Virus record (IMG/VR): IMGVR_UViG_2795385501_000005
Coordinates: 1 to 64,000 of that record
Strand: one strand, 5' to 3'
Source of the DNA: an uncultured virus (IMG/VR IMGVR_UViG_2795385501_000005)
Taxonomy: Duplodnaviria > Heunggongvirae > Uroviricota > Caudoviricetes
Length of the DNA: 64,000 nucleotides
Of this stretch, positions 23,776-60,416 are shown one piece after another. Both the position numbers and the translations under genes were made by a program. The notes beneath the pieces are model-generated. The model was not told where the DNA came from. It was given only the letters and a program-made list of their open reading frames with translations, and did no database searches. The first letter of the stretch is position 1. Each line of letters begins with the position of its first letter.

Positions 23776-23901
23776 ATTTGCTCCGTCTCGTTGTTCAACG
23801 ATCGTTTTAAACGATCAATAGCCGATTATTGATCTGTACAACCAATTTCCATCCCTCTGATTTGACTGTCATTCTTTTGCAAAACAAAAAGGATGATGAC
23901 T

Positions 23902-24030
23902 ATGTGGGCTAAATTTAAAAGTTGGTACATGGCTGCAACAGTGAGCTACTCCACCCTGGCATTGGGGCTAACCTTTACAGGGATGGCCTCTTTGGTCGGG
24001 ATCGCCTATCTGATATATGAGTGCTTTTAG
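23902..24030 (+). CDS. 42-aa single-TM peptide, antisense to the late operon
   Basis: MWAKFKSWYMAATVSYSTLALGLTFTGMASLVGIAYLIYECF; AAGGA RBS; terminator at ~24037-24070. Confidence 0.6.
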   Translation: MWAKFKSWYMAATVSYSTLALGLTFTGMASLVGIAYLIYECF

Positions 24031-24071
24031 TTAATGGAGAGCCGTTGTGAAAGTGGCTCTCAGTTTTTCTT

Positions 24072-24593
24072 TTAGCTGGCAATATCGAGCGTTAACTTCA
24101 GTTGCTCCTGCCAGAATTCCACGGTTGCTTCTAGGGCAGGTTTGTCCCAGCGCCAACGTGCCATTTCTCGTGCACCACCACTTGCTTTTGATTTCCGGTC
24201 ATCGCGAATTCGGCAGGCCTGGTCATAGTTTTGCTGCTCCGTTAGCTCACCACGCAACAAGCTATCTATATGCAAATCACACCAGACAGCGAACCGAGCA
24301 TCGCACCAACGCGCAAAAGCGACCGATAGCTTTGGATGAAGCCATGTACCACCTCCGCGATCCTTTCTCGCCTTACTGGTTTTTACATACCTGCATTTCG
24401 AGGGATGTAGAATTTCAGACTCCACACCAGTCATTGCCTCATCCAGCGCCCGGATGTATTCAAGCGTTTCAGCTAGCCTCATCCAGTTGTCGATGCGCTT
24501 ACCAAATTTCTCAGCAACGTCAGTGACGTTTACCCAACCTTCAGTGTTAAAGCGTACTGATTCGCCTTTATAGCTAAGAGGGATAATGTTCAT
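24072..24593 (-). CDS. KilA-N domain protein
   Basis: 'GWVNVTDVAEKFGKR..GGTWLHPKLSVAFARW'. Confidence 0.9.
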   Translation of the reverse strand: MNIIPLSYKGESVRFNTEGWVNVTDVAEKFGKRIDNWMRLAETLEYIRALDEAMTGVESEILHPSKCRYVKTSKARKDRGGGTWLHPKLSVAFARWCDARFAVWCDLHIDSLLRGELTEQQNYDQACRIRDDRKSKASGGAREMARWRWDKPALEATVEFWQEQLKLTLDIAS

Positions 24594-24783
24594 TCGGATA
24601 TACCTTTTAGTGATGAACCTTGTTCGCACAGGAATACGGCCCTCAGAAGGCTCCGACAGCCAGCCGGTTCCTCAAGGGTCATCCTGAAAGGTTCTGAGTG
24701 ATTTGCGCTGCGATGCGCTGGATTTACTGCATAAAAAAAGCCCGACCTAAGTCGAGCCTTTTGTGTTTTTTTGCCTAACAAGC

Positions 24784-24945
24784 CTACGAAACGGCCATTT
24801 CAATCAAATCTGTGAAGTCCAAGCACATGTCTAGCCTGTGTCCGTGATCATCCACGAAGTTATATTTCTTAAAGTGTTCGATCATCTCTTTGGCACTTTT
24901 GCCACTTAAAGGAGATTTATCAATTGATTCGTCAACCTGTTTCAT
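24784..24945 (-). CDS. Small hypothetical protein (MKQVDES..)
   Basis: C-terminal 53 aa of the 95-aa ORF; followed by a terminator at ~24733-24761. Confidence 0.45.
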   Translation of the reverse strand: MKQVDESIDKSPLSGKSAKEMIEHFKKYNFVDDHGHRLDMCLDFTDLIEMAVS

Positions 24946-25139
24946 CTTCAAACCTTCATTCAGTTGGTTACGATAGTGCAAGTTCCACTTTGGAAATTGC
25001 TTTTCTAGGAGGCGGTATTTATCAATATTCGAGAGTCCCGGCCTCCATTCACACGTCATTAATGAACGCACCGTCTAAGGGGCAGTATTTTGATGCGCAT
25101 ATCAAAAAAGCTGGCTACCCTTACCGCAAAGTTGGGTGA
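24924..25139 (+). CDS. KTSC domain protein
   Basis: 'PVSSSNL.SVGYD....LEI.F..GGIYQY..VP......LM.APSKGQYF...IK'; AAGGAG RBS before TTG. Confidence 0.9.
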   Translation: MIRQPVSSSNLHSVGYDSASSTLEIAFLGGGIYQYSRVPASIHTSLMNAPSKGQYFDAHIKKAGYPYRKVG

Positions 25140-25172
25140 TTAATTCAGCGGGGATGCTGTCCCCACCTTCTC

Positions 25173-25628
25173 TTACCTCGCAAGACAAACGTTATTGATA
25201 TACGCCTGCAAGCCGTTTATTTGGCTGGTTGCAATTCCGATTCGCTCGCGGAGACTGAGATAATCCCGTTCAGCGGCGTTAGTAAGTCTGGCGCTGGCAT
25301 CATCAACGCTGCTGGAGGTGGCTGTGGCTTCGGGCAATCGCTTACAGCTGGCGTTGAGCTGCAACCGCTTAGCACCAGTAGCGATATCAGCACGAAGGCG
25401 CTCGTTCTCAGATTTGGCATCTGCCAGTTCCTTGGTGTATTTGATATCGATAGCAGCAACCTGCTGGCGCTGAATTAGCATCGTGTCAATGGCTGACTGT
25501 CTGCTGTTGGCTATCTGGGTAATGTCAGAGACGTCGCGCTGTAGCCTGGTTACTTGCCCGTGGTAATACATCAGGCCGAATAGCAGAGCCACCGTTACAG
25601 CGATGAGTATTGCCGTTACGCGACTCAT
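25173..25628 (-). CDS. Rz: Rz-like i-spanin
   Basis: N-terminal TM, coiled coil, 'GLQAYINNVC'. Confidence 0.9.
   Translation of the reverse strand: MSRVTAILIAVTVALLFGLMYYHGQVTRLQRDVSDITQIANSRQSAIDTMLIQRQQVAAIDIKYTKELADAKSENERLRADIATGAKRLQLNASCKRLPEATATSSSVDDASARLTNAAERDYLSLRERIGIATSQINGLQAYINNVCLAR
25217..25420 (-). CDS. Rz1: Rz1-like o-spanin lipoprotein embedded in Rz
   Basis: Alternative frame; lipobox LSGC; Pro-rich. Confidence 0.85.
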   Translation of the reverse strand: MPNLRTSAFVLISLLVLSGCSSTPAVSDCPKPQPPPAALMMPAPDLLTPLNGIISVSASESELQPAK

Positions 25629-26074
25629 GACAGGAAAAGCTCACGCTCAGCCGCCCGGCGATTAGTCAGGCCTTTCATTTCTTTCCCACCTGCTTTATTC
25701 CATTTCAGGAATTCATCCGCAGCGCCCTTTGCATCACCCGCGTTTACCTTTTTCATCAGCGTCGATGTGCTGAGCGCTCGGGTTCCGATGTTGTAGGCCA
25801 GCGATACCAAGGCGTCGAATTGATTCTGGGTTACGCCGATTTTGAGCATCTGGTTAACGCCCTGCTCGAACTGGACAACTCCGCATTTCAGCAACCGGTC
25901 GGCGGTAGGCTGATCGATAGTCATGCCGCGAACCACGGGCTTACCATCTACTGGATGAGTCCAGCCGTAACCAATTGTCCAGGGAGCGCCGCCGGTGCCA
26001 GGGTCTGGATATGTCGTCAATTTGCAGCCTTCGAATTGTTTTATTAGATTGATTCCGGTGCTACTGATTTGCAT
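25625..26074 (-). CDS. Endolysin, GH24 lysozyme
   Basis: 'FEG......PD....WTIGYG' and 'NQFDALVS.AYNIG'. Confidence 0.95.
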   Translation of the reverse strand: MQISSTGINLIKQFEGCKLTTYPDPGTGGAPWTIGYGWTHPVDGKPVVRGMTIDQPTADRLLKCGVVQFEQGVNQMLKIGVTQNQFDALVSLAYNIGTRALSTSTLMKKVNAGDAKGAADEFLKWNKAGGKEMKGLTNRRAAERELFLS

Positions 26075-26393
26075 TGTCAGCCCCTGTCTTATTGCCAACG
26101 ATGCGCTTTAGCACCGAACCAATGTAATCCGTACCCATGTACCCAATGAACACGCTGGCAATTAATGACCAGTCAGGGTTCAGCCCGGCTATAACCAATA
26201 CATCTTTGATAAACCATGCCATCACTGAGCACATGGCCGCATCAAGCATACGTTGCGTTTTACCTCCTCCGGCATACCAGCCACGCAAGTAAGCCATCAA
26301 CGCAGCCAGTGCCGCGCTAAGTAACTCACCCCGGTGGTCTGCTATCCAGGCAATGATGAGCATCCATACATCCGGTGATTTCAACATTTTCAT
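26061..26393 (-). CDS. Lambda-family class I holin with Met-Lys-Met dual start
   Basis: Three hydrophobic segments; 'FIGYMGTD'; MKM N-terminus. Confidence 0.9.
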   Translation of the reverse strand: MKMLKSPDVWMLIIAWIADHRGELLSAALAALMAYLRGWYAGGGKTQRMLDAAMCSVMAWFIKDVLVIAGLNPDWSLIASVFIGYMGTDYIGSVLKRIVGNKTGADNANQ

Positions 26394-26560
26394 GACCCAC
26401 CCCCCGTTTGGGGAAAATCTTCCCCGGCATTTGGTCGGGTGCTGTTGTGTAGGGAATAGCTCGCCGCCGTGGCCCATTCAGGCACGTTGTGTTTTTGAGG
26501 GTGATTGGCACTGGCGGCGAGCTAAATAAAAAAGGCCACGCAATAGCGCAGCCTGAAATG

Positions 26561-33122: not shown

Positions 33123-33854
33123 ATGGAAAAAATGACTTTTGCAGATCGGCTAAATTTAGCCATGAAAGAAGGTGGGTTTACTCAGGGTTCTCTCGCTGAG
33201 GCCGTAGGCATGGCACAGCCTAGCGTCTGGAAACTAACTTCAGGAAAAGCCAACTCTTCAAGGAAATCCGTTCAAATAGCCAGAGTTTTAGGTGTTCGGC
33301 CGGAATGGCTTAGTGAAGGAATAGAGCCAATGCGCGAAAGCGGTGTAAACCCACACCATCCTGACTCAACAATCCCACCTGAAAGTGAATGGGTTGGAGT
33401 TAAGGCGTGGGATAAAAATACCCCTCTTGACGATGATGAGGTTGAAGTCCCATTCCTTAGGGATATTGAATTTGCATGTGGCGATGGAAGCGTCTCTGAT
33501 GAGGACTACAACGGGTTTATGCTCAGATTCTCCAAGGCAACGCTACGTCGAATAGGGGCTAACACTGATGGATCTGGAATACTTTGCTTCCCAGCTCGCG
33601 GTAATAGCATGGAGCCAAAAATATCAGATGGTGCGACAGTCGCCATTAACACTGATGATAAAAAGATAATTGACGGTAAGATGTACGCGATCAATGAGGA
33701 TGGATGGAAGCGAGTAAAAATGCTTTATCGTGTGGGCCCTGGTCGTGTCAGCGTGCGGAGTTACAACAAGTCTGAATATCCAGATGAAGAGAAGAATCTA
33801 AAAGATATTGAAATTATTGGCCGCGTGTTCTGGTGGTCAGAGATAGATTACTAA
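33123..33854 (+). CDS. cI: CI repressor (HTH plus S24 peptidase), probably leaderless
   Basis: HTH, 'ACG' cleavage site, 'GNSMEP' and 'VKML'; -10 TAGACT ends 6 nt before the ATG. Confidence 0.95.
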   Translation: MEKMTFADRLNLAMKEGGFTQGSLAEAVGMAQPSVWKLTSGKANSSRKSVQIARVLGVRPEWLSEGIEPMRESGVNPHHPDSTIPPESEWVGVKAWDKNTPLDDDEVEVPFLRDIEFACGDGSVSDEDYNGFMLRFSKATLRRIGANTDGSGILCFPARGNSMEPKISDGATVAINTDDKKIIDGKMYAINEDGWKRVKMLYRVGPGRVSVRSYNKSEYPDEEKNLKDIEIIGRVFWWSEIDY

Positions 33855-33890
33855 CCCACGGCTAACCTACTGCTAGCTCAAGGAGGAATA

Positions 33891-36277: not shown

Positions 36278-36442
36278 TTCTAAATCCCTATATTGACTGT
36301 GGAATAACCAACATATCAATTTCCTTTGACTGTGGAAAGCAGGGAAACCACGGCTGGGCGTGGATAAATATCCCAGCTCAAATTATAGAGGTCACTTAGG
36401 TGGCCTTTTTTATTGGCGGGTAAATGGTTAAGGGGTAAGAGA

Positions 36443-36625
36443 ATGACACTTTCTTTCACTGTTCTGGCTGGCAAGCCGGATAACGACGACGGCGCGTATT
36501 ACGAGAACATTAAGTTCTGTGACAGCGCTGACAGCATGGAAGCTGCGCAGAAGATTGTTCAGGACAACAAGCTTTATACCTATCCGATATGTCGGATTGA
36601 GGTTACAGGATTCAAGGCTGCATAA
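36443..36625 (+). CDS. Hypothetical protein, 60 aa
   Basis: RBS and terminator; duplicated at 58906-59088. Confidence 0.6.
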   Translation: MTLSFTVLAGKPDNDDGAYYENIKFCDSADSMEAAQKIVQDNKLYTYPICRIEVTGFKAA

Positions 36626-36885
36626 CGCGGCCTTTTTTATTGGCTGGTAAATGAGGAATGAATGATGAGTCAATATCGAAACATAAGCATTGAATGGCTT
36701 CAGCGAATGCATGCGGATGGATATGTAGCTCTGTGTGACGGTGATTTACAGGAAGTATTAGATTTCATCTCGGAACCCCAGTGATCTTACCCCTGCCACT
36801 TAACCGGTGGCAGCAATAAGACCACTGAAACAAACAACGAGCTGCTTAATGCGGCTTTTTTATTCCAAAAATTCAAGGAAGCAGC

Positions 36886-37950
36886 ATGAGCAAAGAAACA
36901 GTTATTACCTTTAAAGGCTTCGACCAAAATCTTCAGTGCCGTGGCTACCAGTTCGAAATTGGCAAAACGTATACGCATGAGGGCAAGGTCGAGGCATGCG
37001 GCTCTGGCTTCCACGCTTGTGAATGCCCATTTGATGTTTTCGGATATTACCCGCCAACAAATAGCCGGTATGCAGTAACTGAATCATTTGGTGTTATTGA
37101 CCGCGAAGATGATGGCGATACAAAAATCGCAAGCGCCAGCATAACCATCACAGAAGAACTAACCCTCCCTCAGTTTATTCAGCGCGGGATTGATTGGATC
37201 TGGAGCAAAGTTGATAAGTCGCTTGAACAGCAGATCATGACCGGAAACCAGTCAGCGGCAACCAACACTGGCAACTGGTCAGCGGCAACCAACACTGGCT
37301 ACCAGTCAGCGGCAACCAACACTGGCGACTGGTCAGCGGCAACCAACACTGGCTACCAGTCAGCGGCAACCAACACTGGCGACCGGTCAGCGGCAACCAA
37401 CACTGGCAACCAGTCAGCGGCAATCAACACTGGCTACTGGTCAGCGGCAACCAACACTGGCTACCGGTCAGCGGCAACCAACACTGGCTACCAGTCAGCG
37501 GCAACCAACACTGGCGACCGGTCAGCGGCAACCAACACTGGCTACCGGTCAGCGGCAACCAACACTGGCAACTGGTCAGCGGCAACCAACACTGGCTACC
37601 AGTCAGCGGCAACCAACACTGGCAACTGGTCAGCGGCAACCAACACTGGCTACCGGTCAGCGGCAACCAACACTGGCTACCAGTCAGCGGCAACCAACAC
37701 TGGCAACCGGTCAGCGGCAACCAACACTGGCGACTGGTCAGCGGCAGAGGTGTCTGGATCGCAATCTGTAGCGGCTTCATTCGGTGATGGTGGAAAGGCT
37801 AAAGCGTCAGAAAGCGGCGCAATCGTCCTGTGCTACCGAAATGGCGAAGGCGAACTAATTCATATCCGTGCCAGTAAAGTAGGCGAGAACGGAATTGAGC
37901 CGGATGTTTGGTATTCGCTGAATGAGAATGGCGAGTTTGTAGAAGCGGAA
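36886..37950 (+). CDS. Phage protein with 18 nonapeptide repeats SAATNTG[NYD][WQR]; stop lost at the junction
   Basis: '[32 protein letters not shown]' N-domain; intact copy at 59349-60416. Confidence 0.85.
37252..37746 (+). repeat. 18 x 27-bp coding tandem repeat
   Basis: TCAGCGGCAACCAACACTGGC(A/T/G)AC(C/T)(A/G)G. Confidence 0.97.
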
Positions 37951-37971
37951 GAGCATGGAGCCTTAGTAGAA

Positions 37972-38771
37972 TCGAAGCCGATCCTTATCTCAGTCAGGCG
38001 GTGCTGGATTTACAATTTGGTCACTCCCAGCGGGTGGGTTACGACGTAGCGGTAAAAGTGCTACATGAGCTTCAAGCCATTGGTTCTATTCATAAACGTA
38101 GGCCGGAACACGCCAGTCTTGGCGTGTTGCGTTCACCGGACATTCCCTCTTTATTAGTGGAAACCGGCTTTATCAGTAATGGTACGGAGGAGCGGCTGCT
38201 CGGCAGCAGTGCGTATCAGGATAAAATTGCCCAAGCGATTTACAAAGGCTTGCGCAGTTATTTCCTGTCGCATCCGCTACAAGCCGACCCAAAGGTCGAA
38301 AACCGTCCGCTGGGCGCAACAGCGGCGGTTGAAAGGTCAGCGCGTCAAAGTGGTGTTAATCAGCCTGGCCCGGTAGTCAGTGCGGTCAGCAGTGGGGGGA
38401 AAGCCACCATTAGCGGTAAATCGCTGATTCACATGGTAAAACGGGGTGAAACTCTATCCGGCATTGCCAGCCAGTACGGTGTCAGTATGGCGGCGATGCG
38501 GCAGAATAATACGCTGAAGAAAGACGTGGTATGGGTTGGGCAGCGCCTGCGAATTCCCGCATCTGGCAGCGCGGTAGCTAGCGTCGCCAAGGTGCCTGCG
38601 GTGAAGAAAATCAGCCCGGCCAAACCGATCAAGCATCAGGTTAAACGCGGGGATACTTTATCCGCTATTGCGGCGAAATATGGTGTATCTCAAAGTGAGA
38701 TTCAACGCGTGAATAAGCTGAAGTCTGGTTCGGTACAACTCGGCCAAACGCTCACCATTCCACAGTCTTAA
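37972..38771 (+). pseudogene. amiB: Host N-acetylmuramoyl-L-alanine amidase AmiB, 3' part only, with two LysM domains
   Basis: '[37 protein letters not shown]'; two 'H.VKRG.TLS.IA..YGVS'; upstream of mutL. Confidence 0.9.
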
Positions 38772-38786
38772 CCGAAGGGATTTGTT

Positions 38787-39585
38787 ATGCCGATTCAGAT
38801 ATTACCGCCACAACTCGCCAACCAAATTGCCGCCGGTGAAGTGGTAGAGCGGCCTGCGTCGGTAGTAAAGGAGTTGGTGGAAAACAGTCTGGATGCTGGT
38901 GCCACGCGAATCGATATTGATATTGAGAAAGGTGGCGCAAAATTAATCCGCATCCGTGATAACGGCTGTGGGATAGCTAAAGACGACTTATCGCTGGCGT
39001 TAGCGCGCCATGCAACCAGTAAAATCAGTTCGTTGGAAGATCTGGAGGCCATTCTCAGCATGGGCTTTCGCGGTGAGGCGTTGGCCAGTATTAGCTCGGT
39101 TTCCCGTTTGATGCTGACCTCGCGTACCGCCGAACAGAACGAAGCCTGGCAGGCTTACGCCGAAGGGCGGGATATGGCGGTGACCATCAAACCCGCCGCC
39201 CATCCGGTAGGCAGTACGCTGGAAGTGCTGGATTTGTTTTATAACACGCCAGCGCGGCGTAAATTTATGCGCACGGAAAAAACCGAATTCGGCCATATTG
39301 ATGAAGTGGTACGCCGCATCGCGTTGGCGCGCTTCGACGTGGCGATTCACCTCACTCACAACGGCAAGCTGGTTCGCCAATATCGAGCGGCCCCAGATCC
39401 TTCGCAGCATGAACGTCGTTTGGCCAGTATTTGCGGCCCGGCCTTCCTGCAACATGCGCTGGCGATTTCATGGCAGCACGGTGATTTGAATATTCGTGGC
39501 TGGGTGGCCGACCCCAGCGCTGCCCGAACGCCTAGCGAGATGCAATATTGCTATGTCAATAATCGCATGATGCTTGATCGGCTGA
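38787..39585 (+). pseudogene. mutL: Host MutL, N-terminal ~265 aa only
   Basis: '[46 protein letters not shown]'; breaks at 'YVNNRMM.DRL'. Confidence 0.95.
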
Positions 39586-40484
39586 ATATCATGTTCTGCC
39601 TGACGAAGCGCGGCTGCGCGGGCTTCAACGGCTTTAATCGCTGAATCCATAGCTAATTTACTGTCATTTGCCATCTTCTCTTTATCGGCTCTATCAGCCT
39701 CATCTTTGGCTAACTTGTCTTTCTCAGCCTGCTCCGCTTCGTCTTTGGCTAACTTTTCTTTTTCTTCGTCGGTCATCTCGTCCTTCGCTGTTTTGGGGTC
39801 TTTCTCGTCGTCTTTGATGAGCTTTTCCACGTCCTCTTCCGCTTTCTTTACAGCTTCAGGGTCGGCATCGTTAGCCATCAGCGGCTTGAAGATGCTCATG
39901 AGTTGTTTGATTTTTGACATCAGTTTGAGTCCTGTAGGTAGTGAGTCATATACAAATACATCCGGGCCAGCCCGGCCACTTGGCACGATTGCCACATGGT
40001 TACAAACGATGTCACGCATAACGCCATCGTATGGTTCGCCCTCGTACTCGCCCGGCGTCATGTCGAGCCGATAACGGTATGAAGATGAGATTTCTCGCTG
40101 CTGTTTGTTCTCTACGCCGATAATGGAATTGATGTCGTAAATGCCCATCGAATTCTTCAGATACGGAGCTTCGTACACTGCGTCAGTGCCAGTCGAACCA
40201 ATAATGTGTTCTTTTGGCGGGTCAATTACCGACACAGCGATGTGAGTGTCTAGAACTGGTTTGTTGTTGAATGTTGGAGCGGCTTTCCTGAGTTCTTCAG
40301 GGTCACGTAGCAACCGGTATGCCTTGTCAGGGTTAAGGCCTAACGCTTCCCAATCGGGTATCTCTTTGCCGTAGTAGACGCAGACGTTAGCCTTGCTGAT
40401 AGGCGTCAGTTCAACATGAAGCATCCCGTCAACGTCATAGCGACGAACGCTCGCCTTATCGAAGGCAAACTTCACATCTTTCAT
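39580..40484 (-). pseudogene. DUF2213 head protein, 3'-truncated at the junction
   Basis: 'TPISKANV..Y.G.EIP..NHVAIV..GRAG.DV.V.D'; no Nudix domain. Confidence 0.85.
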
Positions 40485-44811: not shown

Positions 44812-47496
44812 CCGTCTCGTTGTTCAACGATCGTTTTAAACGATCAATAGCCGATTATTGATCTGTACAACCAATTTCCATCCCTCTGATTTGACTGTCA
44901 TTCTTTTGCAAAACAAAAAGGATGATGACTATGTGGGCTAAATTTAAAAGTTGGTACATGGCTGCAACAGTGAGCTACTCCACCCTGGCATTGGGGCTAA
45001 CCTTTACAGGGATGGCCTCTTTGGTCGGGATCGCCTATCTGATATATGAGTGCTTTTAGTTAATGGAGAGCCGTTGTGAAAGTGGCTCTCAGTTTTTCTT
45101 TTAGCTGGCAATATCGAGCGTTAACTTCAGTTGCTCCTGCCAGAATTCCACGGTTGCTTCTAGGGCAGGTTTGTCCCAGCGCCAACGTGCCATTTCTCGT
45201 GCACCACCACTTGCTTTTGATTTCCGGTCATCGCGAATTCGGCAGGCCTGGTCATAGTTTTGCTGCTCCGTTAGCTCACCACGCAACAAGCTATCTATAT
45301 GCAAATCACACCAGACAGCGAACCGAGCATCGCACCAACGCGCAAAAGCGACCGATAGCTTTGGATGAAGCCATGTACCACCTCCGCGATCCTTTCTCGC
45401 CTTACTGGTTTTTACATACCTGCATTTCGAGGGATGTAGAATTTCAGACTCCACACCAGTCATTGCCTCATCCAGCGCCCGGATGTATTCAAGCGTTTCA
45501 AATCAGCCTCATCCAGTTGTCGATGCGCTTACCAAATTTCTCAGCAACGTCAGTGACGTTTACCCAACCTTCAGTGTTAAAGCGTACTGATTCGCCTTTA
45601 TAGCTAAGAGGGATAATGTTCATTCGGATATACCTTTTAGTGATGAACCTTGTTCGCACAGGAATACGGCCCTCAGAAGGCTCCGACAGCCAGCCGGTTC
45701 CTCAAGGGTCATCCTGAAAGGTTCTGAGTGATTTGCGCTGCGATGCGCTGGATTTACTGCATAAAAAAAGCCCGACCTAAGTCGAGCCTTTTGTGTTTTT
45801 TTGCCTAACAAGCCTACGAAACGGCCATTTCAATCAAATCTGTGAAGTCCAAGCACATGTCTAGCCTGTGTCCGTGATCATCCACGAAGTTATATTTCTT
45901 AAAGTGTTCGATCATCTCTTTGGCACTTTTGCCACTTAAAGGAGATTTATCAATTGATTCGTCAACCTGTTTCATCTTCAAACCTTCATTCAGTTGGTTA
46001 CGATAGTGCAAGTTCCACTTTGGAAATTGCTTTTCTAGGAGGCGGTATTTATCAATATTCGAGAGTCCCGGCCTCCATTCACACGTCATTAATGAACGCA
46101 CCGTCTAAGGGGCAGTATTTTGATGCGCATATCAAAAAAGCTGGCTACCCTTACCGCAAAGTTGGGTGATTAATTCAGCGGGGATGCTGTCCCCACCTTC
46201 TCTTACCTCGCAAGACAAACGTTATTGATATACGCCTGCAAGCCGTTTATTTGGCTGGTTGCAATTCCGATTCGCTCGCGGAGACTGAGATAATCCCGTT
46301 CAGCGGCGTTAGTAAGTCTGGCGCTGGCATCATCAACGCTGCTGGAGGTGGCTGTGGCTTCGGGCAATCGCTTACAGCTGGCGTTGAGCTGCAACCGCTT
46401 AGCACCAGTAGCGATATCAGCACGAAGGCGCTCGTTCTCAGATTTGGCATCTGCCAGTTCCTTGGTGTATTTGATATCGATAGCAGCAACCTGCTGGCGC
46501 TGAATTAGCATCGTGTCAATGGCTGACTGTCTGCTGTTGGCTATCTGGGTAATGTCAGAGACGTCGCGCTGTAGCCTGGTTACTTGCCCGTGGTAATACA
46601 TCAGGCCGAATAGCAGAGCCACCGTTACAGCGATGAGTATTGCCGTTACGCGACTCATGACAGGAAAAGCTCACGCTCAGCCGCCCGGCGATTAGTCAGG
46701 CCTTTCATTTCTTTCCCACCTGCTTTATTCCATTTCAGGAATTCATCCGCAGCGCCCTTTGCATCACCCGCGTTTACCTTTTTCATCAGCGTCGATGTGC
46801 TGAGCGCTCGGGTTCCGATGTTGTAGGCCAGCGATACCAAGGCGTCGAATTGATTCTGGGTTACGCCGATTTTGAGCATCTGGTTAACGCCCTGCTCGAA
46901 CTGGACAACTCCGCATTTCAGCAACCGGTCGGCGGTAGGCTGATCGATAGTCATGCCGCGAACCACGGGCTTACCATCTACTGGATGAGTCCAGCCGTAA
47001 CCAATTGTCCAGGGAGCGCCGCCGGTGCCAGGGTCTGGATATGCCGTCAATTTGCAGCCTTCGAATTGTTTTATTAGATTGATTCCGGTGCTACTGATTT
47101 GCATTGTCAGCCCCTGTCTTATTGCCAACGATGCGCTTTAGCACCGAACCAATGTAATCCGTACCCATGTACCCAATGAACACGCTGGCAATTAATGACC
47201 AGTCAGGGTTCAGCCCGGCTATAACCAATACATCTTTGATAAACCATGCCATCACTGAGCACATGGCCGCATCAAGCATACGTTGCGTTTTACCTCCTCC
47301 GGCATACCAGCCACGCAAGTAAGCCATCAACGCAGCCAGTGCCGCGCTAAGTAACTCACCCCGGTGGTCTGCTATCCAGGCAATGATGAGCATCCATACA
47401 TCCGGTGATTTCAACATTTTCATGACCCACCCCCCGTTTGGGGAAAATCTTCCCCGGCATTTGGTCGGGTGCTGTTGTGTAGGGAATAGCTCGCCG
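44812..47496. repeat. Lysis-region block, copy 2 (TM peptide 44931-45059, KTSC 45954-46169, Rz/Rz1 46203-46658, endolysin 46655-47104, holin 47091-47423)
   Basis: Near-identical to 23783-26466. Confidence 0.95.
45101..45623 (-). pseudogene. KilA-N protein copy, frameshifted near 45500
   Basis: TTTCAAATCAGCC here versus TTTCAGCTAGCC in copy 1 (+1 nt). Confidence 0.75.
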
Positions 47497-54805: not shown

Positions 54806-55102
54806 TTAAAACGACATTGTTATCTGCTCTGCTGAATCCCTGGTGGCCGCCGGGGATTTTTGTTTTGCGAGCAGCAACGCCACTGACTTAGCCAGCCTTG
54901 CCATCTCGTCATCGACCACTCCCCACTCCAAAACAGCCAGAAGCATTGATATCTTCGGAATGAAGCTTTCTTTCCAGCGTGATATCTGTGACTTATCAAC
55001 GCCAACAGCGTCAGCAATATCAGTGACGCCTCGTAATGCAATCTTGTTCAGTAGTTGGCTCTCAATGATTCGAGCCTTGTTGCGTGTGCTTGCACGTTCC
55101 AT
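54806..55102 (-). CDS. cII: CII activator
   Basis: 'IESQLLNKIA..G....A.AVGVDKSQISRWK..IPK.SMLLAVLEWGV', lambda-like. Confidence 0.95.
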   Translation of the reverse strand: MERASTRNKARIIESQLLNKIALRGVTDIADAVGVDKSQISRWKESFIPKISMLLAVLEWGVVDDEMARLAKSVALLLAKQKSPAATRDSAEQITMSF

Positions 55103-55164
55103 GCGTAATACTTCCCTTTCTGATTAAGTGCGTAGTCAGTCCGTGGGATTGACCACTTTGTTGG

Positions 55165-55202
55165 TGCCCTCGAGTCAGGGCGGTTAAGTTGTGTAAAGAG
55201 CG
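55165..55202 (-). promoter_or_regulatory. nutR (boxA plus boxB)
   Basis: CGCTCTTTAC then GCCCTGACTCGAGGGC after cro. Confidence 0.85.
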
Positions 55203-55208
55203 GTGTTT

Positions 55209-55418
55209 CTATGCAGCTTTTGGCGGGAAAATTTCATCTAATGTGTCGTTGCTTCCCAACTCATTAAGCGCCATTACTATTCGACGACATGACTCAAGAT
55301 CAGGAACTCGGATACCTGATTCATAGTTGGCAACTCGTGACTGTTTCCAACCGCAGGTGTTTGCAAGAACTGACTGAGTGACGCCAAGTTTTTTCCGTAC
55401 TGTGGCAATTTGATTCAT
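55209..55418 (-). CDS. cro: Cro-like HTH protein
   Basis: 'RKKLGVTQ..LA..CGW.QSRVANYESG.R.P'. Confidence 0.9.
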   Translation of the reverse strand: MNQIATVRKKLGVTQSVLANTCGWKQSRVANYESGIRVPDLESCRRIVMALNELGSNDTLDEIFPPKAA

Positions 55419-55452
55419 TTGGTTTTCCTTAATGATTCACTCAACCTCAATT

Positions 55453-55513
55453 AAACACGTTTTGTGTTTTAATTTCAACACAAATCGTGAAAGCCAATTA
55501 ACACGGATTGTGG
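55453..55513. promoter_or_regulatory. OR operators of phage B (ACAC-N5-GTG)
   Basis: Three copies here; two more at ~57713-57753 (OL). Confidence 0.75.
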
Positions 55514-55520
55514 TAAATAG

Positions 55521-56180
55521 ATGTGCATGAATACGAATGATGAAATTGCAAAAAGGCTGAAAAGCCTTAGAGAAAATAAAGGCCTTACCCAAGGGGCCTT
55601 GGCAAGCCTGTGCGGATGGAAATCACAGTCAAGAATTGGGAATTATGAATCTGGCGCTAGAAAATTAAGCACTAGCGATGCAGAAACAATCGCTAAGGTT
55701 TTGGGGGTTTCGGCATCTCAAATTCTTTTTGGCGATCAGGAGCCATCAAATTTTTCTTACGTTGGCCCTAATATCAAGGGGGAGAAATATCCACTAATCA
55801 GTTGGGTTAGTGCCGGGGCATGGTGCGAAGCTATTGAACCCTACGCACTAAAAGATATCGATGAGTGGTTTCAGTCAGACGCGAGAATTGAAGGTAATGG
55901 CTTTTGGTTGCGTGTTGAGGGTGACTCGATGACAGCCCCTACTGGGCTTAGCATTCCTGAAGATACACTCGTTCTTTTCGATACTGGAAGAGAAGCAAGA
56001 AACGGCAGTCTAGTTATTGCGAAGCTGGAAACAGCTAACGAAGCTACATTTAAAAAACTGATCATTGACGGCGGAGCTAAATATTTGCGTGGTCTTAACC
56101 CCGCATGGCCTCTTGTGCCGATTAATGGGAATTGCAAAATCATTGGCGTAGCTGTCGAAACCAAAATGCGGTTAGTCTAA
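55521..56180 (+). CDS. cI: CI repressor (HTH plus S24)
   Basis: 'VSAG', 'FWLRVEGDSM', 'EATFKKL'. Confidence 0.95.
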   Translation: MCMNTNDEIAKRLKSLRENKGLTQGALASLCGWKSQSRIGNYESGARKLSTSDAETIAKVLGVSASQILFGDQEPSNFSYVGPNIKGEKYPLISWVSAGAWCEAIEPYALKDIDEWFQSDARIEGNGFWLRVEGDSMTAPTGLSIPEDTLVLFDTGREARNGSLVIAKLETANEATFKKLIIDGGAKYLRGLNPAWPLVPINGNCKIIGVAVETKMRLV

Positions 56181-56201
56181 TACCCTAACCCACTGCTAGC
56201 C

Positions 56202-56306
56202 CTACCAATTTCGGGCACGCCAGCACATAAACAAGACGACCGTTAGGTTAGTAACCGAAGCAATTAATGCGACAGTGGCAAGAATATCGGAACCTGAGAA
56301 AGACAT
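56202..56306 (-). CDS. 34-aa hydrophobic peptide (absent from the ORF track)
   Basis: MSFSGSDILATVALIASVTNLTVVLFMCWRARNW; GGAGA RBS 7 nt upstream. Confidence 0.6.
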   Translation of the reverse strand: MSFSGSDILATVALIASVTNLTVVLFMCWRARNW

Positions 56307-56318
56307 AGGGATATCTCC

Positions 56319-56717
56319 ATGACATACAGTGATGCGGTTGCAACTATTGCAATAATTATATCAGTCGTTGCATTACCTGCAACATACTATTTTGGCTACA
56401 AGGCTGCCGTGAGGAACGATAATCGCAAAGAATGGAATGCTATTGCGGAACCGATTTTAGCCGAATTGGAGTTGATACAAAGCATATGGGAGGGCAATGA
56501 TTCGCTAAGCGTCGACCCGCTGCCTTACCAAAACATAGAAATGCTATCCCGTAGAGTAACTAACAAAAAGAGCAAAGAATTGAAAGCTGTGTGGGATAGA
56601 TATTATCAATGCAGGGACAGGATAAAACGGCCTGAACAGCATGATGATATAAGCGCTATCTATCGTGACGGAATTGAGTCAGTAAAAGCACTCAGAAAAA
56701 TAATGAGGCTTAGGTAA
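56319..56717 (+). CDS. Hypothetical protein with N-terminal TM helix
   Basis: AGGGA RBS; residues ~6-27 hydrophobic. Confidence 0.75.
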   Translation: MTYSDAVATIAIIISVVALPATYYFGYKAAVRNDNRKEWNAIAEPILAELELIQSIWEGNDSLSVDPLPYQNIEMLSRRVTNKKSKELKAVWDRYYQCRDRIKRPEQHDDISAIYRDGIESVKALRKIMRLR

Positions 56718-56767
56718 ACCCACTGCTAGCCCATAGAGATTTAGCAAATATAAATAAAGGTCTGGTT

Positions 56768-57199
56768 ATGGAAAAAATATCATTTATTTACACCCACGAA
56801 ATCAGAGAGGGTGATCCAGCCAGGGTGGTTAGGCAACCAGAACCTTGGATTAAAGTCTCAAATATTCCAGGAAGAATTAATCTTGGAATAATTTTTGGGT
56901 TATTCATAAGATCCTATAAAACATATAAAATTGTTGTAGATGTCCTCCATGAAGACATTAGTATTATGAATGACACCAAAGACAAGTTATCGGCTGAACC
57001 GTTAGTTGCCGCATCCCCTTCAGCTGACGATTATGTGAGCATAGAAAGCATGGCTCTTCTTGGATTGAATGTTAAAAATGAAGGCGCGCATAAGGTGGTT
57101 TGTTCCATATATTCCTCCCCAGACCAAATAGAAAATGAGAAAATATTGCATTCAGCTGAGTGTTATTTTTTTGTATCTAAAACGCAGGGAGCGCGCTGA
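56768..57199 (+). CDS. Hypothetical protein (beta-rich, AT-rich)
   Basis: 143-aa ORF coupled to the next gene. Confidence 0.7.
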   Translation: MEKISFIYTHEIREGDPARVVRQPEPWIKVSNIPGRINLGIIFGLFIRSYKTYKIVVDVLHEDISIMNDTKDKLSAEPLVAASPSADDYVSIESMALLGLNVKNEGAHKVVCSIYSSPDQIENEKILHSAECYFFVSKTQGAR

Positions 57200-57513
57200 T
57201 GGTTGAAGCGGTCAACATCATAACCAGAGCCCCTGTCATTGCAGATGATCAGGATATGGGCGATAATCGTCAACATGGTAGCGGGAATGGAGGAGGTGAT
57301 GACATGCTTGAAAGAGTAAAAGATTTAGAAACCAAAGTCGCCACTCTCGTAACTGACGTGGCCATCATCAAAGATAAACTAGCTTCAAAAGAAGACATCC
57401 AATCAGTGAAAACTGAGTTACATAAAGAACTTAATAATCAAACTTGGAAAATTATTGGATCTCTTGTTGTAGCTGTTTTGATTGCGGTTTTGTCAAAATA
57501 TTATATCAAGTAA
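57199..57513 (+). CDS. Coiled-coil protein with C-terminal TM anchor
   Basis: 'LERVKDLETKV..ASKEDI..QTWKIIGSLVVAVLIAVL'. Confidence 0.7.
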   Translation: MVEAVNIITRAPVIADDQDMGDNRQHGSGNGGGDDMLERVKDLETKVATLVTDVAIIKDKLASKEDIQSVKTELHKELNNQTWKIIGSLVVAVLIAVLSKYYIK

Positions 57514-57802
57514 AATGCTGTCGCTTAGAAACCCGGCCCCGCTGCCGGGTTTTTTGCGCCTGTAATCTGACAATCTCACCACCCTGCCCGCTTTAAACAC
57601 TACTCACCTCACACTTTTCACGCCTGATATCCAGGTGCGAAGGGTCACGTCTGAATTATTTTCAAATTAAATTACATTAAAAATCAATAACATCACACTT
57701 AAGCGCCCCAATTAAACACAATTCGTGTTGACGATCAAAACACAATCTGTGATTATTTATCCCATCAACACGGCAGGACGCCGAAGTGGTACGACAGGAA
57801 GC

Positions 57803-57840
57803 ACGCTCTTTAACAATTAGATTGCCCTGATACGAGGGCA
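57803..57840 (+). promoter_or_regulatory. nutL (boxA plus boxB), followed by an RNase III-type long stem
   Basis: CGCTCTTTAACAA; GCCCTGATACGAGGGC; TTGGCTTTGG..CCAAAGCCAA stem at ~57851-57985. Confidence 0.85.
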
Positions 57841-58000
57841 CCAAAGAGAAGTTGGCTTTGGCGGTGCTGGTAAGACAACGGCCTTGTGAATAAGCAAACC
57901 GGATCGCAATGCGAACGTGATGCCAAATCGATAGCTGTTAGAAGCATCAAGGAAATCCGGTAACTACCGGCACCACCAAAGCCAATCACCGGAGGTAATC

Positions 58001-58234
58001 ATGAATTCGAGAGAGCGACGCACAGCTCGTTACAGAGCTAAATGTGCAGCAGAGGGTCGGTTAGAAAAGAACATCGCTACAGCCCTCACAGGCTGCACAG
58101 CTCGGGTATACAAAGCAACGATTCCTGTACCGGTTCGCAGCGCCGAGCAGCCAAGCGCGGACAATATATGTTTGCCTGAAGTGGCTAAGTTTGCAGCAGG
58201 CTTCCGTAAGAGTGAGAGCGTTACGGCGCGGTAG
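58001..58234 (+). CDS. N: N antitermination protein
   Basis: Arg-rich 'NSRERRTARYR' N-terminus; 'ICLPEVA.FAAGFRK'. Confidence 0.85.
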   Translation: MNSRERRTARYRAKCAAEGRLEKNIATALTGCTARVYKATIPVPVRSAEQPSADNICLPEVAKFAAGFRKSESVTAR

Positions 58235-58239
58235 TGATT

Positions 58240-58737
58240 TTAGTAGCGCTTCATGCTGTGTGGGATATGTACATCAGGGAGCGGTGGTACTTTATTCATG
58301 CGGTATTCATTTTGGCATCGGGGGCACTGATGAACAAAGAAATTATTGGACTTAACTGTTTGAATGCTAGGCTGAAGTATAGATATCTGGTGATCGCCGA
58401 AGCAGTGTGCACAAAGGTCATGAGGCTCAATAACGTCATCGGAAGAAGACTTAGATCTGTACACGACAGATCCACCTTCCGTTTTGTGAAGTTCGTAGTT
58501 CTCGGCCTGCACAATAAACATCTCGATTTTGTTATTTTCTTCGCGAAGCTGTCCTGTGATGTATCGCTCAGCCTGATAAAGGCCAGAGAGTTCCGCATTA
58601 AGCATCTGTAACTCAGTAATTTTTTCTGAAAGATCACCTGCTGCTTTCCTGATAACTAATTCATCACGACTTTCTTTTATTATCTTCAATAAATCAAAAG
58701 CTTGCTTTGCTGCAGTCAAACTAGAAAAAACGTCCAT
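58240..58737 (-). CDS. Hypothetical coiled-coil/Zn-ribbon protein in the sieB position
   Basis: CAHC..CPRC; antisense within the PL operon. Confidence 0.75.
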   Translation of the reverse strand: MDVFSSLTAAKQAFDLLKIIKESRDELVIRKAAGDLSEKITELQMLNAELSGLYQAERYITGQLREENNKIEMFIVQAENYELHKTEGGSVVYRSKSSSDDVIEPHDLCAHCFGDHQISILQPSIQTVKSNNFFVHQCPRCQNEYRMNKVPPLPDVHIPHSMKRY

Positions 58738-58889
58738 TTGAATAATTCTCTAACTGTAGGGGTGATTACAGTTTATTCGATTTCTTGCTGTAGGGGTATA
58801 GCAGAACCACCGCCGCCTGACGTGGTTAAAGATAGTTCAGGCAACTATTTATTGGTCATCGCACCAACCGCAAAGAAGCCCACCACATA

Positions 58890-60413
58890 GTTAAGGGGTA
58901 AGAGAATGACACTTTCTTTCACTGTTCTGGCTGGCAAGCCGGATAACGACGACGGCGCGTATTACGAGAACATTAAGTTCTGTGACAGCGCTGACAGCAT
59001 GGAAGCTGCGCAGAAGATTGTTCAGGACAACAAGCTTTATACCTATCCGATATGTCGGATTGAGGTTACAGGATTCAAGGCTGCATAACGCGGCCTTTTT
59101 TATTGGCTGGTAAATGAGGAATGAATGATGAGTCAATATCGAAACATAAGCATTGAATGGCTTCAGCGAATGCATGCGGATGGATATGTAGCTCTGTGTG
59201 ACGGTGATTTACAGGAAGTATTAGATTTCATCTCGGAACCCCAGTGATCTTACCCCTGCCACTTAACCGGTGGCAGCAATAAGACCACTGAAACAAACAA
59301 CGAGCTGCTTAATGCGGCTTTTTTATTCCAAAAATTCAAGGAAGCAGCATGAGCAAAGAAACAGTTATTACCTTTAAAGGCTTCGACCAAAATCTTCAGT
59401 GCCGTGGCTACCAGTTCGAAATTGGCAAAACGTATACGCATGAGGGCAAGGTCGAGGCATGCGGCTCTGGCTTCCACGCTTGTGAATGCCCATTTGATGT
59501 TTTCGGATATTACCCGCCAACAAATAGCCGGTATGCAGTAACTGAATCATTTGGTGTTATTGACCGCGAAGATGATGGCGATACAAAAATCGCAAGCGCC
59601 AGCATAACCATCACAGAAGAACTAACCCTCCCTCAGTTTATTCAGCGCGGGATTGATTGGATCTGGAGCAAAGTTGATAAGTCGCTTGAACAGCAGATCA
59701 TGACCGGAAACCAGTCAGCGGCAACCAACACTGGCAACTGGTCAGCGGCAACCAACACTGGCTACCAGTCAGCGGCAACCAACACTGGCGACTGGTCAGC
59801 GGCAACCAACACTGGCTACCAGTCAGCGGCAACCAACACTGGCGACCGGTCAGCGGCAACCAACACTGGCAACCAGTCAGCGGCAATCAACACTGGCTAC
59901 TGGTCAGCGGCAACCAACACTGGCTACCGGTCAGCGGCAACCAACACTGGCTACCAGTCAGCGGCAACCAACACTGGCGACCGGTCAGCGGCAACCAACA
60001 CTGGCTACCGGTCAGCGGCAACCAACACTGGCAACTGGTCAGCGGCAACCAACACTGGCTACCAGTCAGCGGCAACCAACACTGGCAACTGGTCAGCGGC
60101 AACCAACACTGGCTACCGGTCAGCGGCAACCAACACTGGCTACCAGTCAGCGGCAACCAACACTGGCAACCGGTCAGCGGCAACCAACACTGGCGACTGG
60201 TCAGCGGCAGAGGTGTCTGGATCGCAATCTGTAGCGGCTTCATTCGGTGATGGTGGAAAGGCTAAAGCGTCAGAAAGCGGCGCAATCGTCCTGTGCTACC
60301 GAAATGGCGAAGGCGAACTAATTCATATCCGTGCCAGTAAAGTAGGCGAGAACGGAATTAAGCCGGATGTTTGGTATTCGCTGAATGAGAATGGCGAGTT
60401 TGTAGAAGCGGAA
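58890..60413. repeat. PL-operon block, copy 2
   Basis: Near-identical to 36427-37950. Confidence 0.95.
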
Positions 60414-60416
60414 TAA
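59349..60416 (+). CDS. Nonapeptide-repeat phage protein (intact copy; repeats at 59715-60209)
   Basis: 355-aa ORF with its own stop codon. Confidence 0.9.
   Translation: MSKETVITFKGFDQNLQCRGYQFEIGKTYTHEGKVEACGSGFHACECPFDVFGYYPPTNSRYAVTESFGVIDREDDGDTKIASASITITEELTLPQFIQRGIDWIWSKVDKSLEQQIMTGNQSAATNTGNWSAATNTGYQSAATNTGDWSAATNTGYQSAATNTGDRSAATNTGNQSAAINTGYWSAATNTGYRSAATNTGYQSAATNTGDRSAATNTGYRSAATNTGNWSAATNTGYQSAATNTGNWSAATNTGYRSAATNTGYQSAATNTGNRSAATNTGDWSAAEVSGSQSVAASFGDGGKAKASESGAIVLCYRNGEGELIHIRASKVGENGIKPDVWYSLNENGEFVEAE

Follow-up and report, generated by a model that had tools for sequence, protein, structure and literature searches.

Directly behind a lambdoid cI repressor gene, the provirus analyzed here carries a module in which a 132-aa membrane protein and a 34-aa membrane peptide are encoded back to back on opposite strands, an arrangement shared by many enterobacterial prophages, and the sequence of the pair suggests that the phage probably uses the peptide to switch off its own anti-phage protein. 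The explanation that best accounts for the evidence as a whole, which we hold at about an even chance of being correct, is that the module encodes a repressor-linked exclusion or abortive-infection effector fitted with an off-switch made of a peptide and an antisense RNA, and that it is exchanged between phages by short-homology recombination. Positions given below are those of the window, the whole 64,000-nucleotide stretch of DNA that was analyzed.

The cassette lies in the slot between cI and N

The record is a provirus with two lambdoid immunity regions, and the cassette sits in the second of these, where the gene order is cII, a cro-like gene, cI, the cassette, two further genes, and N. 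The cI gene (55521..56180, + strand) encodes a repressor with helix-turn-helix and S24 domains, matching Pfam PF01381 and PF00717 above cut-off. In the available text of the papers on these systems, the interval between cI and N is the slot of rexAB and bstA (PMC8585504, PMC7067206), and the position of the cassette is equivalent. By analogy with bstA in that slot, read-through from the cI gene is the probable source of cassette transcription. In 64 of 77 loci the end of a repressor gene is no more than 150 bp from the module, and in 7 other loci the module occupies a variable slot of a satellite-like element; it resides, in other words, in accessory hotspots. In the satellite-like element (L153:2361-2930; L252-L276) the module lies between imperfect 20-bp repeats upstream of an Erf-like gene, and other alleles hold other cargo in the same variable slot.

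Elsewhere in the window, a 165-aa gene lies antisense directly after N (58240-58737, - strand; PHROG 1244, function unannotated), and a protein with a long 9-residue tandem repeat is encoded in two copies (59349-60416 and 36886-38049). Two segments are duplicated at 99.9% identity (23783-26466 with 44812-47496, and 36424-37950 with 58887-60413), and host amiB-mutL DNA is found inside the window at 38001-39644. The two duplications, the two immunity regions, and the host DNA together mean that the record probably contains two prophages that are joined or mis-assembled. The amiB-mutL fragment does not come from the pseudotuberculosis group, because it shares 75-79% identity with five Yersinia genomes, Y. 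similis among them.

A 16-bp boundary site at the ends of repressor genes

The cassette is bounded by two exact copies of a 16-bp repeat, here called R, at 56187-56202 and 56717-56732 (+ strand), each of which touches a stop codon as the sequence-only reading had described. The last base of the first copy doubles as part of the stop codon of the peptide gene, and the first base of the second is the last base of the TAA of the 132-aa gene; the second copy continues into the start of the tail that is seen at empty sites (56717..56738). That the repeats enclose exactly two ORFs holds for the conserved ORFs, although three more short minus-strand ORFs are present between them. The repeat variant claimed for the record's other cI gene is there as well, in the form of two degenerate copies (33853..33879, + strand) starting at 33853 with 3 mismatches and at 33864 with 2. 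At up to 3 mismatches the 16-mer has 4 matches against a mean of 0.38 in shuffled sequence, where 1 of 100 shuffles reached 4, and a pair of exact copies at a distance of 530 bp is a far rarer event still. The presence of the repeat is explained by its location, because the first copy adjoins the cI stop (56180), beginning 6 nt after it. The 6 nt in between (56181..56186, + strand) appear to be a leftover of another cI gene's end, as identical letters end another cI type just before the site in several loci.

The repeat is not specific to the module; it is a Yersinia boundary site, found where many cI genes unrelated to one another have their stop codon. The 16-mer matches 86 viral stretches, in most of them once and where a repressor gene ends. 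Exact copies of the site were seen in 8 GTDB stretches, every one of them Yersinia, and in a single named Yersinia phage; of 151 family-level genomes 2 have the site, both from Yersinia, and none of the E. coli genomes searched does. Most homologs of the module outside Yersinia lack the 16-bp repeat.

For a survey of the site, 173 loci including the window's two regions were pooled (with 3 metagenome loci left out), 2 without a full site were dropped, and the remaining 171 were reduced to 97 distinct alleles. Empty sites with one repeat, which the sequence-only reading had proposed to look for, do exist; 64 of the 97 alleles have a single site, and 9 of the 63 downstream types are seen both empty and filled. 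Another 28 alleles have two sites and 5 have three. Other cargo between the same repeats was likewise to be looked for, and the 38 intervening segments, 115-856 bp in length, represent 19 cassette types, in most of which a ribosome site precedes a short ORF for a single helix, with the end of the ORF lying in the site. In the 95 alleles that retain both flanks, 92 combinations are formed from 27 types of upstream and 63 types of downstream sequence; the TAA of the site terminates the upstream ORF in 67, and in 86 the end of a long upstream ORF falls at -9..+2 relative to the site. In our reading, the site is a boundary that perpetuates itself and provides stop codons as well. The cassettes of 115-171 bp directly behind the site (L015, L016, L012, L055, L068, L074, L040, and others) nearly all encode one membrane peptide of 29-50 aa ending in the site, and these are candidate exclusion peptides; one cassette type of 148 bp was found in 10 alleles.

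Cassettes are exchanged at the boundary

The module moves as a block, and cassettes are exchanged at the cI-end boundary of Yersinia lambdoid phages. The 530-bp cassette of the window recurs in L043 behind a different cI gene and ahead of different genes, and the genes downstream of it in the window, which lie outside the cassette (56768..57513, + strand), directly follow one R only in L046 and L078, with 96.3% identity over 973 bp. These downstream genes encode proteins of 143 and 104 aa (PHROG 5881 and 6324, function unannotated), are translationally coupled, and recur as a pair behind the site.

The mechanism of exchange is most likely short-homology, RecT-type recombination, and the record encodes a RecT with a PDDEXK-type neighbour gene. 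Homology of 23-27 bp is quoted as efficient for Red-beta in the available text of one source (PMC3945230), and because the junction homologies here are shorter, at 9-21 bp, a dedicated recombinase has to be weighed as well. R would then be the target of a site-specific enzyme that moves cassettes as circles, and the array would be the prophage counterpart of an integron, with the cI promoter as its driver. This alternative, which we consider unlikely, would fit the many cassette types and instances, with up to three sites in a row and all joined around the same CTAG, as well as the prevailing layout of a ribosome site and an ORF ending in the site, the recurrence of the 148-bp type, and the downstream types seen in both states. 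It is opposed by the register of the homology, which shifts by 0 to 11 bases to the left and 0 to 8 to the right of CTAG, by the identical manner in which unrelated cI genes are joined to R, and by the use in other enterobacteria of a different word, a leftover of a cI end. The sole tyrosine recombinase of the record (PF00589 match at 68810-69316) is about 12 kb away. The precise excision that the sequence-only reading expected was not seen either, since 0 allele pairs among the 95 share both flanks and differ solely by a cassette.

The same reading had likened the unit to an integron cassette, and the comparison is not supported. An attC site is an imperfect palindrome that folds into a hairpin, and the modelled circle junctions of the 19 types fold at -0.4 to -12.3 kcal/mol, energies without a shuffle control, with no common stem evident. 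No integron integrase lies beside the array, where the neighbour is cI. An ORF with a 3' site, stacking, and empty sites are all found here, as in integron gene cassettes, whose promoterless ORFs with a 3' site are stacked behind a fixed promoter (phage cases in the available part of PMC9892861); in contrast to these, the R array has no attC hairpin, adjacent integrase, or fixed crossover point, and this module seems to carry an internal promoter.

R joins many upstream to many downstream modules through a short word at a gene end, which is also how lambdoid boundary or linker sequences and T4-type PeSL cassettes work, the conserved word being the point through which unrelated modules swap. 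Unlike those words, R is present in copies flanking the stacked cassettes, contributes stop codons, and is confined to Yersinia among named records. In non-Yersinia prophages (L162:1750-2390; L163:2200-2400; L136; L160), short hydrophobic ORFs are stacked between repeated leftovers of cI 3' ends, a parallel array with a different word.

A membrane-anchored helical protein of an unnamed family

The putative effector is a 132-aa protein (56319..56717, + strand) with an N-terminal membrane helix running into a four-helix bundle and a motif R-K-E-[WF]-N. Its family comprises 142 representatives at 50% clustering, and one Klebsiella-type allele is present on at least 1000 contigs. The predicted structure (mean pLDDT 95.5) contains four helices, a long one (residues 3-58) and three that are shorter, and by this model the protein is a membrane anchor with a generic four-helix bundle. 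A fold search returned generic four-helix bundles only, the best with Z 11.0, rmsd 2.8, and 93 aligned residues, and Foldseek gave no match at E<=0.001. Sequence searches of Pfam, NCBIfam, PADLOC, and PDB yielded no named family, and the match to PHROG 34525 (E 3.5e-16) has no annotated function. In the ESM Atlas the protein falls with unnamed clusters at 0.95-0.96; KilB, at 0.83, is a lead that falls below the bar.

The only good viral fold match is BFVD Q8W646 (TM 0.79), which is probably phiP27 L13, a correspondence based on length and homology only. L13 belongs to the 132-aa family by profile (probability 99.6) and, like PHROG 34525, is a family member with no annotated function; it differs from the window gene in lying antisense after cro. 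An N-terminal helix joined to a helical bundle is shared with Csx28 and other TM-HEPN membrane effectors, and PADLOC gives weak matches in 3 of 123 family members, the best being Csx28 at E 9e-4. The window protein itself has 0 PADLOC matches and hence no Csx28 match, Csx28 is absent from the listed fold matches, and no CRISPR context was seen.

The antisense peptide is conserved and under selection

The 34-aa single-pass membrane peptide (56202..56306, - strand) is mostly uncalled in annotation, and the exact peptide of the window is absent from a collection of 15 billion sequences. It was surveyed at 78 loci with close homologs of the 132-aa gene, comprising 76 from a homolog search, one Klebsiella phage, and the window, with 3 start codons reset by hand. 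Of these 78 loci, 72 have a hydrophobic back-to-back peptide in intact form, so that the co-conservation proposed from the window alone is borne out. The peptide is under purifying selection: across 41 distinct genes, pN/pS is 0.13, 0.12, and 0.16 at 90-100, 80-90, and 70-80% identity (25, 10, and 26 pairs, which are not independent) and climbs to 0.28 and 0.55 where sites are saturated, and the mismatch rates at the three codon positions are 0.108, 0.030, and 0.299. Co-conservation and selection refute the idea of a chance ORF.

The other 6 loci, classed by hand, have an intact large gene with the peptide decayed or missing, from which it follows that the peptide is dispensable. In L140, L144, and L145 the peptide has lost its start codon and gained charged residues while the large gene is intact, and these are natural peptide-null alleles. 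The same 6 losses favour a conditional effector and disfavour a classical toxin-antitoxin pair, a system of that kind being one of two options in the sequence-only reading. One product would in that case be constitutively toxic and be neutralised by the other product or its RNA, most nearly in a type I-like arrangement with the peptide as toxin. The 5' ends of the two genes do overlap, and type I toxins have a characteristic size and charge pattern that the peptide shares. We nevertheless regard a toxin-antitoxin pair as very unlikely, given the loss of the peptide in those loci and a large gene that is truncated beside an intact peptide in one (L162), some of which breaks may be sequencing errors.

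The peptide mimics the membrane helix of its partner

The claim that the peptide resembles the N-terminal helix of the 132-aa protein is upheld by a clear likeness in 26 of the 41 distinct alleles, where 0-1 of 200 residue shuffles reach the score, and by a profile-profile comparison (P 4.5e-5). The likeness is weak in 12 alleles, all ES-type, for which 2 to 151 of 200 shuffles reach the score, and 3 are unclassed. Third codon positions are mostly unshared between the peptide and the partner helix, and in the main subfamily the likeness is kept at the amino-acid level, not at that of the RNA. With the family profile, the mimic is picked up upstream on the other strand at 29 of 77 loci, compared with 0 of 77 in a downstream control stretch, and peptides score best on the helices of their own subfamily in all three groups (33.9, 19.2, and 20.6).

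These patterns also bear on what the peptide does to its partner. It could be a positive accessory subunit, both products forming one hetero-oligomeric membrane complex as in RexAB, with the antisense layout setting only ratio or timing. The strong co-conservation is consistent with a shared complex, as are the likeness of each peptide to its own subfamily's helices and a conserved Asn in the peptide helix. The two products also have the same predicted orientation, which is called from their basic C-termini by the positive-inside rule. This role is nonetheless unlikely in our judgment, as the large gene stands intact without a peptide in 6 of 78 close loci and several distant ones, and the overlapping head-to-head 5' ends would favour mutually exclusive expression.

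The products might instead be independent, for example two entry-exclusion helices acting on the same host membrane target, with mutual control solely through antisense RNA or transcriptional interference. Stand-alone single-helix peptides are the product of most other cassettes at the site and of the arrays behind cI in other enterobacteria, and convergence on one target would also preserve the helix likeness. Against such independence, which we think quite unlikely, the peptide is found only back to back with the large gene (in a search of homolog loci, solo copies falling outside it), and the spacing between the two starts is fixed at 11-12 nt in 34 of 41 alleles.

The picture is more varied in a distant subfamily of 31 loci. 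Some members have a candidate back-to-back peptide, and several others, which are coupled to an upstream gene, have none; the two profiles found no mimic in any of the 31, and in 11 hand-picked loci the mimicry is not significant per locus (11 to 237 of 300 shuffles). Phage phiP27 has a different layout (L311:7092-7838), in which the ORF directly following cro, 248 aa long and in sense orientation, overlaps the entire antisense family gene and carries a mimic helix. This ORF mimics both the helix and the basic motif (0 of 300 shuffles; 41% DNA identity) and faces the early lytic direction. It is a single case, no further loci with the phiP27 layout having been found; of the two ORFs, RefSeq marks the sense one (in E. 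coli GB089) and GenBank the antisense one. The peptide probably arose, we infer, by inverted duplication of the 5' end of the effector gene.

A shared start region and a probable promoter hidden in the large gene

The two ATGs, at 56306 (- strand) and 56319 (+ strand), flank a 12-nt spacer (56307..56318) that has the form of a two-way ribosome-binding site, with AGGGA on the + strand and GGAGA on the - strand, exactly as first read from the letters. This gap is conserved at 11-12 nt, and among the 34 alleles that keep it, 29 have SD-like triplets on both strands.

Beyond the start, codons 7-22 of the large gene probably hide an antisense promoter flanked by two palindromes, a reading of the sequence that draws on codon conservation. 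In a set of 25 representatives below 80% identity, the same-codon fraction is 0.67 over these codons against 0.29 expected, compared with 0.39 against 0.38 from codon 25 on. The predicted promoter of the peptide gene (56355..56382, - strand) has a -35 of TTGCAG, 16 bp, and a TG-extended -10 of TATAAT, with the -10 shape TAnnnT in 20 of 25 representatives, and is not listed by a simple consensus promoter scan. One palindrome, TTGCA-N5-TGCAA, lies over the predicted antisense start point (56338..56352; at most 1 mismatch in 19 of 25 representatives) and a second over the predicted -35 (56368..56382; 18 of 25), and these are the only two copies in the 69.9-kb record. The local repressor is unlikely to be the binder, because the motif persists behind unrelated repressors. 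A cII-activated promoter was also rejected, as the repeats are spaced 5 nt here and those of the cII motif 6 nt.

A long mRNA hairpin over the start, an alternative raised in the sequence-only reading, is not supported in the window allele (z about -0.5), nor is it a conserved feature of the 41 alleles, which range from z -2.2 to +1.5 on the + strand, with a few at about -3.5 on the - strand. Rfam has no match in 55000-58300. Contigs of two RNA runs cover the module, showing neither strand nor level, and from two raw-read runs only 3 and 2 reads aligned, 0 of them on the module.

A proposed mechanism for self-immunity

We infer cI co-expression, anti-phage activity, antisense silencing, and dominant-negative binding for the module, which would work together as follows. 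In the lysogen, the 132-aa protein would be made from the repressor operon as a single-pass inner-membrane effector, and would block or abort infection by other phages. The antisense gene would have its own regulated promoter within the effector's first 22 codons, where the sequence signal is seen and activity is presumed. When this promoter fires, the transcript would overlap the ribosome site and start of the effector and could silence it in antisense, and the peptide would enter the membrane in the effector's orientation and poison its assembly by helix mimicry. The carrier phage would in this way gain self-immunity.

This logic matches that of P22 SieB/Esc/sas, in which, according to the available text, a prophage exclusion protein acts together with an inhibitory peptide related to it and with a cis antisense RNA, so that the phage escapes its own exclusion (PMC10002423, PMC12197685). 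The earlier comparison with SieB/Esc holds for this proposed logic; it does not extend to the parts, which are different, placed on opposite strands, and not of the SieB family, the SieB Pfam model having no match among 123 family members at E<=0.01. Whereas SieB and Esc are products of one gene on one strand, the mimic here is a separate opposite-strand gene, so that the antisense RNA would itself be the mRNA of the inhibitor.

A second parallel is with BstA-aba. In the available text, bstA is co-transcribed with cI, and aba includes the first 34 bp of bstA, forming a self-immunity element at the 5' end of the effector gene; aba appears to act as DNA, and BstA localises to sites of phage DNA replication (PMC8585504, PMC7067206). 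The module resembles BstA-aba and RexAB in the cI-N slot and, as proposed here, in co-transcription with cI and in a self-immunity element at the effector's 5' end, and the searches gave no family match of the 132-aa protein to BstA or RexAB. No description of the module or the site was found in the literature consulted, which excludes most subscription papers and supplements, where a table from a defence screen might list the family. On present comparisons, no family, fold, or paper appears to name the module.

A more ambitious reading, which we put forward tentatively and think somewhat doubtful, is that this is an undescribed class of prophage defence. Its self-immunity factor would be an inverted, truncated copy of the effector helix, set head to head over a shared ribosome site, with an operator-controlled promoter within the effector codons and one antisense RNA that both silences and poisons the effector; in Yersinia it would sit in a cI-driven cassette array loaded by a recombinase at a fixed site.

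Little is settled about the way prophages escape their own membrane-acting defence proteins, and the module offers a two-gene, easily cloned test of it, with natural controls in the alleles without the peptide and in the subfamilies with different helices. The boundary site, for its part, points to 19 or more cassette types that can be listed as candidate exclusion genes, most of them coding for small membrane peptides.
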